DNA of 14,640 nucleotides from a virus (Duplodnaviria; Heunggongvirae; Uroviricota; Caudoviricetes): the IMG/VR virus record IMGVR_UViG_2630968342_000015. One strand, given 5' to 3'. Shown here one piece after another: positions 6,467 to 6,845 of this stretch. Each line of letters begins with the position of its first letter. The first letter of the stretch is position 1. Position numbers and translations under genes: made by a program. The notes below the pieces were generated by a model that was not told where the DNA came from, did not search any database, and saw only the letters and a program-made list of their open reading frames with translations.

Positions 6467-6490
6467 AGCCGGAGAAATCCGGCTTTTTTT
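6467..6490 (+). terminator. Intrinsic terminator (GNRA-loop hairpin + U7)
   Basis: AGCCGGA-GAAA-TCCGGCT followed by TTTTTTT, immediately after the PerC-like gene. Confidence 0.8.
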
Positions 6491-6585
6491 GCACCAGTTG
6501 AAACGGTATGGCGCATTACCGGGTTTTCGTCACGGTCAGGCATAGTTACTATCTGAAACAAACAGACACAACAGAGGAAAAAACA

Positions 6586-6810
6586 ATGCCGATGAAATTT
6601 GATGAGATATTAAAACAGCGTGATAAATACCATGCTGACAACATGGAGACGATGAGCATCAATGATTACCGCGCATTCCTGGAGACGGGCGCACTGATTG
6701 AAAAGGATCAGCATGGTTTTGTGAGATGTGCTCTGTCCGGTGAAATGCTGGCGGTAAATCCTGAACAGATAGATGCATTGATAGAATTTCTGAAAGGGAT
6801 CAGGGACTGA
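6586..6810 (+). CDS. Hypothetical small protein (74 aa), independently terminated cassette
   Basis: ATG 6586 with SD AGAGGA (6573-6578). Flanked by near-identical terminators. No recognisable family. Confidence 0.55.
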   Translation: MPMKFDEILKQRDKYHADNMETMSINDYRAFLETGALIEKDQHGFVRCALSGEMLAVNPEQIDALIEFLKGIRD

Positions 6811-6820
6811 GCACGCATAC

Positions 6821-6845
6821 AGCCGGAGCAATCCGGCTTTTTGTC
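6821..6845 (+). terminator. Intrinsic terminator (GNRA-loop hairpin + U-run), near-duplicate of 6467-6490
   Basis: AGCCGGA-GCAA-TCCGGCT followed by TTTTTG. Confidence 0.8.

Follow-up and report, generated by a model that had tools for sequence, protein, structure and literature searches.

A Hairpin-Bounded Small-Gene Cassette Between the Early and Capsid Modules of a Capsid-Forming Phage Satellite Related to EcCIEDL933

Introduction

Why should a gene of only 74 amino acids stand between the replication and head genes of a phage-like element, with nearly the same terminator-like hairpin on either side? The question is posed by a 14,640-nucleotide stretch of viral DNA (IMG/VR record IMGVR_UViG_2630968342_000015; hereafter the window, meaning the whole stretch analyzed), in which a sequence-only reading had described positions 6467-6845 as a moron-like cassette, expressed independently of its neighbors and possibly in the lysogen. 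A moron, in the concept of Juhala and Hendrix, is a gene additional to the conserved ones between which it lies, equipped with a promoter and a terminator of its own. The answer depends on what the element is, how the hairpins are distributed, where transcription starts, and how widely the small gene is retained.

Identity and Gene Order of the Element

By its sequence, the window is a variant of the capsid-forming phage satellite EcCIEDL933 (cf-PICI; O157 OI-51/Sp7 type), the published prototype of the cf-PICIs; the EDL933 island has also been published as O-island 51 (OI-51) and CP-933C, and its DUF4222 protein as RgdR. In megablast comparisons, positions 6300-7000 are 99.9-100% identical to the 'prophage Sp7' of E. 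coli O157:H7 Sakai and to EDL933, in both of which the matching region sits between roxA and phoQ. Over 6190-7300, EcCIEDL933 and the window are 99.9% identical, and the closest matches to the full window come from strains such as G1/2 and O55:H7 USDA5905. Gene assignments, made from open reading frames together with Pfam and PHROG matches, give the order int, alpA (PF05930), DUF4222/RgdR, D5-type primase, phrog_1231, SSB, PerC/pchE, and the small ORF ECs_1589 in the first half, followed by HK97-type capsid, protease, portal, head closure, connector, HNH, P27-type terS, terL, and phrog_1561 in the second; in EcCIEDL933, OI-51, and Sakai Sp7, too, pchE is followed by the small gene and then by the capsid operon. 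The window thus carries the features that mark a cf-PICI (int, alpA, pri-rep with ori iterons, and its own HK97-type capsid and packaging set), and no tail or lysis genes were found among its ORFs and Pfam matches, as the definition of a cf-PICI demands.

The primase position sets the window apart from its prototype. EDL933 and Sakai, which represent the EcCIEDL933 type, have a 710-aa DUF927 protein there, whereas the window gene (3406-5238) encodes a 610-aa protein with D5_N/Pox_D5 domains that is 98% identical to the primase of locus L003, a cassette-less island considered below; as its primase module is unlike that of EDL933, the window is regarded as a mosaic variant of EcCIEDL933. Just 3' of the primase gene, at 5240-5480, an AT-rich stretch is densely filled with the iterons CTGTTCACC and GGTGAACAG in both orientations, and presumably forms the replication origin of the island. 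The early side of the element closes with pchE (6189-6461, plus strand), a PerC family gene (Pfam PF06069, E 9e-45; pchE/ECs_1588 in Sakai), which from its place in the sequence is the last gene of the early unit (alpA-primase-SSB), with the hairpin behind it as its predicted terminator. Elsewhere in the window, a strong terminator-like hairpin with a 15-bp stem lies on the minus strand at 2543-2579, inside or at the end of a plus-strand 247-aa ORF (1839-2582; the hypothetical ECs_1576 of the Sakai annotation), and hints at an unannotated minus-strand transcript downstream of alpA.

The Small Gene and Its Protein Family

The 74-aa ORF that had been read between the hairpins, with a Shine-Dalgarno sequence of its own, is real: it occupies 6586-6810 on the plus strand (ECs_1589/WP_001132080), with GAGGA at 6574-6578, 7 nt before the ATG. 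PHROG 1957, a family of unknown function, matches the ORF over its full length (E 7e-42), and a Pfam search with the protein gave no match. A longer in-frame reading of 100 aa from 6508 is excluded because transcription was mapped to start at 6560, according to the part of a public start-site table described below. Among E. coli-type alleles, dN/dS ranges from 0.08 to 0.28 with dS up to 0.37, and 4, 8, and 19 variable sites fall on codon positions 1, 2, and 3, respectively; judged from these alignments, the family is under purifying selection.

An exhaustive HMMER search of 1.84 billion representative sequences returned 21 family proteins at E <= 0.001, mostly of 66-106 aa and 30-43% identical, which share Y28, D41-x-H43, A56, Q61, and I66-E67-x-L69; P0019, a 1,383-aa repeat protein in the homologue list, was judged a spurious repeat match. 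The protein is acidic (pI 4.9; 8.6 kDa) and is modeled by AF2 with a pLDDT of 92, and a search with this model found no matching fold in the PDB or BFVD (best Foldseek E value against BFVD, 1.2). The fold was also found not to be similar to a solved winged-helix domain. Comparison of the profile with PDB sequences gave a weak match to residues 83-121 of N.BspD6I, which is at most a wing-like motif, given the acidic nature of the protein and folds that fail to match. A literature search for ECs1589 found nothing.

Across Enterobacterales and in Gilliamella, homologues share about 40% identity. Protein-anchored searches placed members in Shigella, Gilliamella, Phytobacter, Enterobacter, Serratia, Leclercia, Erwinia, and Citrobacter, nearly all of them between primase/ori iterons and a cf-PICI capsid gene. 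In a sample of cf-PICIs anchored on the capsid gene instead, a member lies within 3 kb upstream of the capsid in 11 of the 21 close islands and 28 of the 52 divergent ones, and this presence in about half of the islands at a single position suggests a family that is frequent, fixed in position, and dispensable. A tblastn search of 50,697 phage genomes with the ORF found no homologue at E <= 0.01; on the sequences compared, the family is satellite-specific, being found in satellites and not in phages. In a second E. coli allele, of 82 aa (83 codons counting the stop), no terminator stands in front of the gene, which begins 20 nt past SSB or 64 nt past PerC and would thus be co-transcribed with the early genes as part of an early operon; in other loci it overlaps a ProQ/FinO gene. 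A terminator-like hairpin of another sequence stands behind most, but not all, family members, and among these hairpins a compensatory stem change (GGCCTGG/CCAGGCC to GGCCCGG/CCGGGCC) is seen. In some cf-PICIs, a convergent 157-aa gene (L006:3476-3949, minus strand) is found between the small-gene homologue and the capsid promoter; the two genes have a bidirectional terminator in common, and the 157-aa gene is probably true variable cargo of the slot.

The Two Hairpins and the Loss or Gain of the Cassette

Both hairpins lie where the sequence-only reading had placed them. T1 (6467-6490, plus strand) consists of the 7-bp stem AGCCGGA/TCCGGCT closed by a GAAA loop at 6467-6484 and six more T (6485-6490), and T2 (6821-6845, plus strand) has the same stem with a GCAA loop at 6821-6838, followed by TTTTGT; five of the seven stem pairs are GC and the loops are tetraloops. 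T1 begins 6 nt past the stop codon of pchE and T2 11 nt past that of the small ORF. Folding with flanks included gives -13.2 kcal/mol for T1 and -14.4 kcal/mol for T2 (z about -3.9 relative to shuffles), and the hairpin alone folds at -12.0 kcal/mol. The two belong to a 24-nt direct repeat (6465-6488 and 6819-6842; 354 bp apart) whose copies are 96% identical, a likeness that is not due to chance. Both exhibit the sequence criteria of a Rho-independent terminator (GC-rich stem-loop, U-tract, position after a stop codon), and T2 carries every sequence hallmark of an intrinsic terminator; both also appear on the list of a terminator scan that is itself unspecific (21 matches against 16.6 expected from shuffles). 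An Rfam scan of the window gave only sub-threshold chance matches, none of them in 6467-6845. In view of their sequence, orientation, and position, the copies most likely act as Rho-independent terminators that insulate neighboring units. The RefSeq annotation of EDL933 has a frameshifted 'trigger factor' pseudogene, EDL933_RS35125, at 6431-6546, covering the 3' end of PerC, T1, and the leader of the small gene; it looks like an annotation artefact, since the hairpin and a promoter occupy that stretch.

The motif is by no means confined to this gene. An exact-pattern scan of IMG/VR recovered it in at least 120 contigs, and the 178 hairpin copies that were sorted by neighboring genes stand 3' of SSB, PerC, the small ORF, phrog_1231, primase, and a head-module gene, and 5' of the small ORF, the cf capsid, the classical-PICI module, terS, and phrog_1561. 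Where loci were gathered via genes rather than via the hairpin, every one of the 102 copies lies on the coding strand, and at least six T occur within the next 8 nt in 101 of them. By this distribution, the hairpin is a generic, terminator-type punctuation of modules in E. coli PICIs and not a device of the 74-aa gene. A third copy was noted in classical PICIs after a head-module gene (L005:8913-8928; L007:4280-4295).

Between PerC and the capsid gene, E. coli genomes show four main arrangements. The cassette-bearing form was found in 214 genomes; the other three are a form exactly 354 bp shorter, a form in which PerC-T1-ORF-T2 is joined to a classical-PICI packaging module, and a form with other cargo. 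In loci L003 and L004, which represent the shorter form, PerC is followed by a single hairpin and the capsid region, exactly 354 bp are missing, and the hairpin is a precise hybrid of the upstream flank of T1 with the loop and downstream flank of T2. A 354-bp unit of leader, ORF, and one hairpin would thus have been lost or gained precisely at the hairpin copies. Hybrid junctions with both loop types occur (PerC-C-capsid, 11; PerC-A-capsid, 2), in related genomes whose counts are not independent events. In L007, the PerC hairpin is fused to the sequence that follows a distal copy, a hairpin-to-hairpin fusion that appears to have deleted the whole packaging module. We conclude from these junctions that hairpin copies are the breakpoints of module exchange and cassette loss, with recombination as the presumed mechanism: as the copies are near-identical, they may serve as short homologies through which modules would be exchanged.

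The interior of the cassette was present in 539 of 5,426 complete E. coli genomes (592 copies), always at full length, and in both cf-PICIs and classical PICIs. Islands that lack it and are otherwise near-identical are estimated to occur in 145 E. coli genomes, a figure extrapolated from 11 of 60 rows of a spread sample. The GC content of the cassette is 0.42-0.44, compared with 0.57-0.60 upstream and about 0.50 downstream.

Conserved boundary sequences are also known from lambdoid phages, where they promote module exchange. The hairpin resembles these in that a short conserved border sequence coincides with the breakpoints of mosaic homology. It differs in that the border is the predicted 24-nt terminator hairpin itself, reused at many junctions, and in that a cassette is here seen to be lost or gained exactly between two copies.

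Promoters and Transcription Units

Evidence of transcription comes from a Cappable-seq map of EDL933 on genome NZ_CP008957, the consulted rows of which list a start site at 1687581 (+) for EDL933_RS08695 that was detected in eight of eight uninduced conditions, namely exponential and stationary phase in LB, M9, acid, and salt (PMC10469882, Table S5). By exact mapping of a 31-mer, this site corresponds to A6560 of the window, 26 nt upstream of the ATG; the data were obtained in EDL933, a strain other than that of the window, whose sequence there is identical. The promoter is accordingly placed at 6524-6560 on the plus strand, with a -35 hexamer TTTTCG (6524-6529), a 17-nt spacer, a -10 hexamer TACTAT (6547-6552), and start A6560. 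These hexamers, read from the sequence, match the consensus at 7 of 12 positions. It had been proposed to look for a promoter in 6491-6585: consensus scans of that interval found none that convinced and the hexamer scan reached at most 7/12, so that the promoter is accepted solely because of the start site in the EDL933 table. Across 23 distinct cassettes, the block 6524-6578 hardly varies at all, while third codon positions vary at about 25%. In sheet 2 of the same table, site 1687581 is filed under the class d_gTSS (PMC10469882). From other rows of the sheet, we infer that this class holds start sites downstream of an annotated start, in which case the 2017 annotation would have used the 100-aa start at window position 6508.

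A second listed start site, at 1687918 and detected in seven of eight conditions, belongs to the capsid gene (PMC10469882) and maps to A6897. It lies within a control region on the plus strand (6843-6897) that comprises the conserved box TTTTGTAAATTATTTGTTCG, a -35 hexamer TTGTTC (6862-6867), a -10 hexamer TTCACT (6885-6890), and the start itself. By this context, T2 separates two transcription units. In several genera the box is found again, some 215-255 nt upstream of many cf-PICI capsid genes; a strict pattern located it in all 21 close loci and in 33 of the 52 divergent ones. A pair of GTTGTTCCACGTTGTTCAC within the capsid promoter, at 6871-6889, loosely resembles the ori iterons. For alpA, the table gives two start sites in EDL933, and among the matches listed there are none for RS08640-RS08690, the genes between alpA and the small ORF (PMC10469882). 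One further EDL933 site, 1692213 (+), falls at window position 11192 between HNH and terS and was listed in one condition only.

The rightward genes would accordingly be split into at least three transcription units: an alpA-driven early unit ending at pchE and T1; a unit of one gene, in which a promoter of poor consensus match with start A6560 drives the 74-aa ORF up to T2; and the capsid operon, transcribed from A6897 under a promoter of its own and headed by a long structured leader. The expectation that the 74-aa gene is expressed independently in the uninduced host is supported by the public Cappable-seq rows, with A6560 used in every condition in EDL933. That expectation was to be abandoned if no transcript existed or if the ORF were not conserved; by those rows a transcript start exists, and the ORF is under purifying selection.

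A Structured Leader in Front of the Capsid Gene

Conservation and structure mark the region that extends from T2 to the capsid ATG, and the leader from 6890 to 7106 folds at -77.4 kcal/mol (z -4.3). It contains a conserved hairpin, P1 (6939-6962), which folds alike in three sequence versions, that of the window among them; a long and variable hairpin, P2 (6964-7011); and a hairpin at 7067-7094 followed by eight U, the U-run ending at the capsid ATG (7103). Among 27 divergent leaders, P1 and P2 covary strongly: 96.6% of the cells are paired, compared with 86.1% after shuffling and 26-53% when slid, and double changes are seen at 12 of 20 pairs. An alternative pairing of CCAGGACGC (6946-6954) with GCGUCCUGG (7065-7073) competes with the hairpin at 7067-7094; in another group of leaders, a pairing of GACGUGA with UCACGUC is possible, and L015 and L212 carry a double change that matches it. 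An Rfam search of the leader region gave no family match. From its predicted folds, the capsid leader looks like a candidate for an undescribed leader RNA of the attenuator type.

Discussion

Taken as a whole, the findings are probably best explained by a cf-PICI map of three transcription units in which the hairpins act as terminators and exchange borders and the small gene is transcribed without induction, an explanation in which we have good confidence. Its components had partly been anticipated. A moron is expected to show insertion between genes that are otherwise adjacent, a promoter of its own in the uninduced host, and deviant GC, all of which were found (the promoter by the public start-site rows). 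As in phage morons, the small gene is present or absent between otherwise adjacent genes, has a start site that is active without induction in the EDL933 table, is followed by a predicted terminator hairpin, and lies in a cassette lower in GC than its flanks. Its architecture therefore stands; its label as a moron has to be refined. Unlike a phage moron, the gene resides in a phage satellite and belongs to a family unmatched in phage genomes; its location is constant from genus to genus, in other alleles it forms part of an operon, and the borders of the cassette are a hairpin common to many other junctions of the element family. The gene is also less sporadic than a typical moron, because it holds a fixed position in about half of cf-PICIs and is co-transcribed in other alleles.

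The part assigned to the hairpins may be questioned from two sides. They could be transcript-stabilizing 3' stem-loops, processing sites, or a self-spreading palindrome of REP type rather than mainly terminators, a view encouraged by stem arms (GCCGGA/TCCGGC) that resemble the base of E. coli REP stems, by the many copies of the motif, and by a few copies in which the stem is weakened by mutation and the cassette is nevertheless present. Such roles seem improbable to us, given that every copy is co-oriented with the genes and only a few nucleotides past a stop codon, that a U-tract follows 101 of 102, that the start-site table maps fresh starts shortly 3' of both T1 and T2, that unrelated GC-rich hairpins with T-runs, including one compensatory stem change, fill the same position in other alleles, and that the motif measures just 18 nt with a tetraloop, compared with about 35 nt for REP elements; on size, strict co-orientation with the U-tract, and the lack of a visible integron integrase, both an integron attC and a REP element were rejected. 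Alternatively, early transcription from the alpA promoter might pass T1, T2, and the leader hairpin by processive antitermination, which would make the hairpins regulated gates, with AlpA as the candidate factor. Three terminator-like hairpins in one co-directional gene array would suit this arrangement, as would published reports that EcCIEDL933 reproduces when alpA by itself is overexpressed (a procedure also used for purifying its particles) and that Pseudomonas AlpA is a processive antiterminator. The Pseudomonas protein, however, is described as having an eight-helix, 21Q-like fold and the window AlpA is a 62-aa PF05930 protein; AlpA as antiterminator was dropped, the name being common to the Pseudomonas 21Q-like protein and no evidence of homology. 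The separate start sites listed 3' of T1 and T2 likewise mean that read-through is not needed to express the small gene or the leader, and we consider antitermination unlikely. Terminators remain the preferred reading of the hairpins.

The function of the small protein is less readily settled. In PICIs, the Tai immune genes map just downstream of pri, and the authors who described cf-PICIs anticipate that the variable region ahead of the packaging operon will hold immune systems. The small gene occupies the same place on the island map as these immune hot spots, between pri and the packaging module, and, as in the PICI accessory region generally, content there varies among otherwise similar islands. 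Membership in Tai itself was rejected, as the ORF has no match in 50,697 phage genomes (phi80 assumed included) and TaiEcA is a protein of 26.1 kDa, compared with 8.6 kDa here. PADLOC defense models assigned the 74-aa protein to no family, with stray hits at E of about 0.02 for one or two of the 21 family members. An accessory factor in conflict between phage and satellite or phage and host is plausible, at somewhat below an even chance; against a defense role stand the missing PADLOC match, a single 74-aa protein without a catalytic motif, and synteny conserved across genera. That the protein is a non-essential factor of the satellite life cycle or of late-gene regulation is a possibility held tentatively, and is opposed by the absence of the gene from about half of cf-PICIs. 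Some other function takes up what is left, and seems rather unlikely.

A related proposal would make the gene a regular, non-essential part of the induced program, serving the late or capsid operon or helper functions, with T1 merely the terminator of the PerC module. The position between replication/ori and capsid is fixed in E. coli, Shigella, Serratia, Phytobacter, Enterobacter, Leclercia, Erwinia, and Gilliamella, the 82-aa allele is co-transcribed with early genes, no homologue occurs in 50,697 phage genomes, and the gene lies directly 5' of a conserved late promoter and structured leader, all of which fit such a part. Yet the gene is absent from about half of cf-PICIs and from near-identical islands in an estimated 145 E. 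coli genomes, has a start site of its own that was listed in all uninduced conditions, and is also present in classical PICIs, whose packaging module is another one and which lack such a leader, and an acidic protein argues against a DNA-binding regulator; we regard the proposal as conceivable and somewhat doubtful. A bolder scheme, in which a satellite-specific protein of a fold unmatched in PDB/BFVD, produced constitutively by the resident island, either blocks competing phages as a one-gene system or senses helper infection and opens the capsid leader, the hairpin being a dedicated recombination border through which PICIs swap such cassettes, possibly with helper recombinases, is considered unlikely.

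Except in the points that follow, the cassette is an ordinary promoter-gene-terminator unit. It provides a satellite-restricted, constitutively transcribed gene in about 10% of complete E. coli genomes, O157:H7 included, and the 74-aa gene may reasonably be put forward as a new player in the conflict between phages and satellites. The analysis also yields a testable transcription-unit map of the prototype cf-PICI, of which no counterpart was found in the published descriptions consulted. The structured leader RNA of the capsid gene may be more novel than the cassette itself. Lastly, a predicted 24-nt terminator hairpin that is both punctuation mark and shuffling breakpoint helps to explain the mosaicism of these islands.
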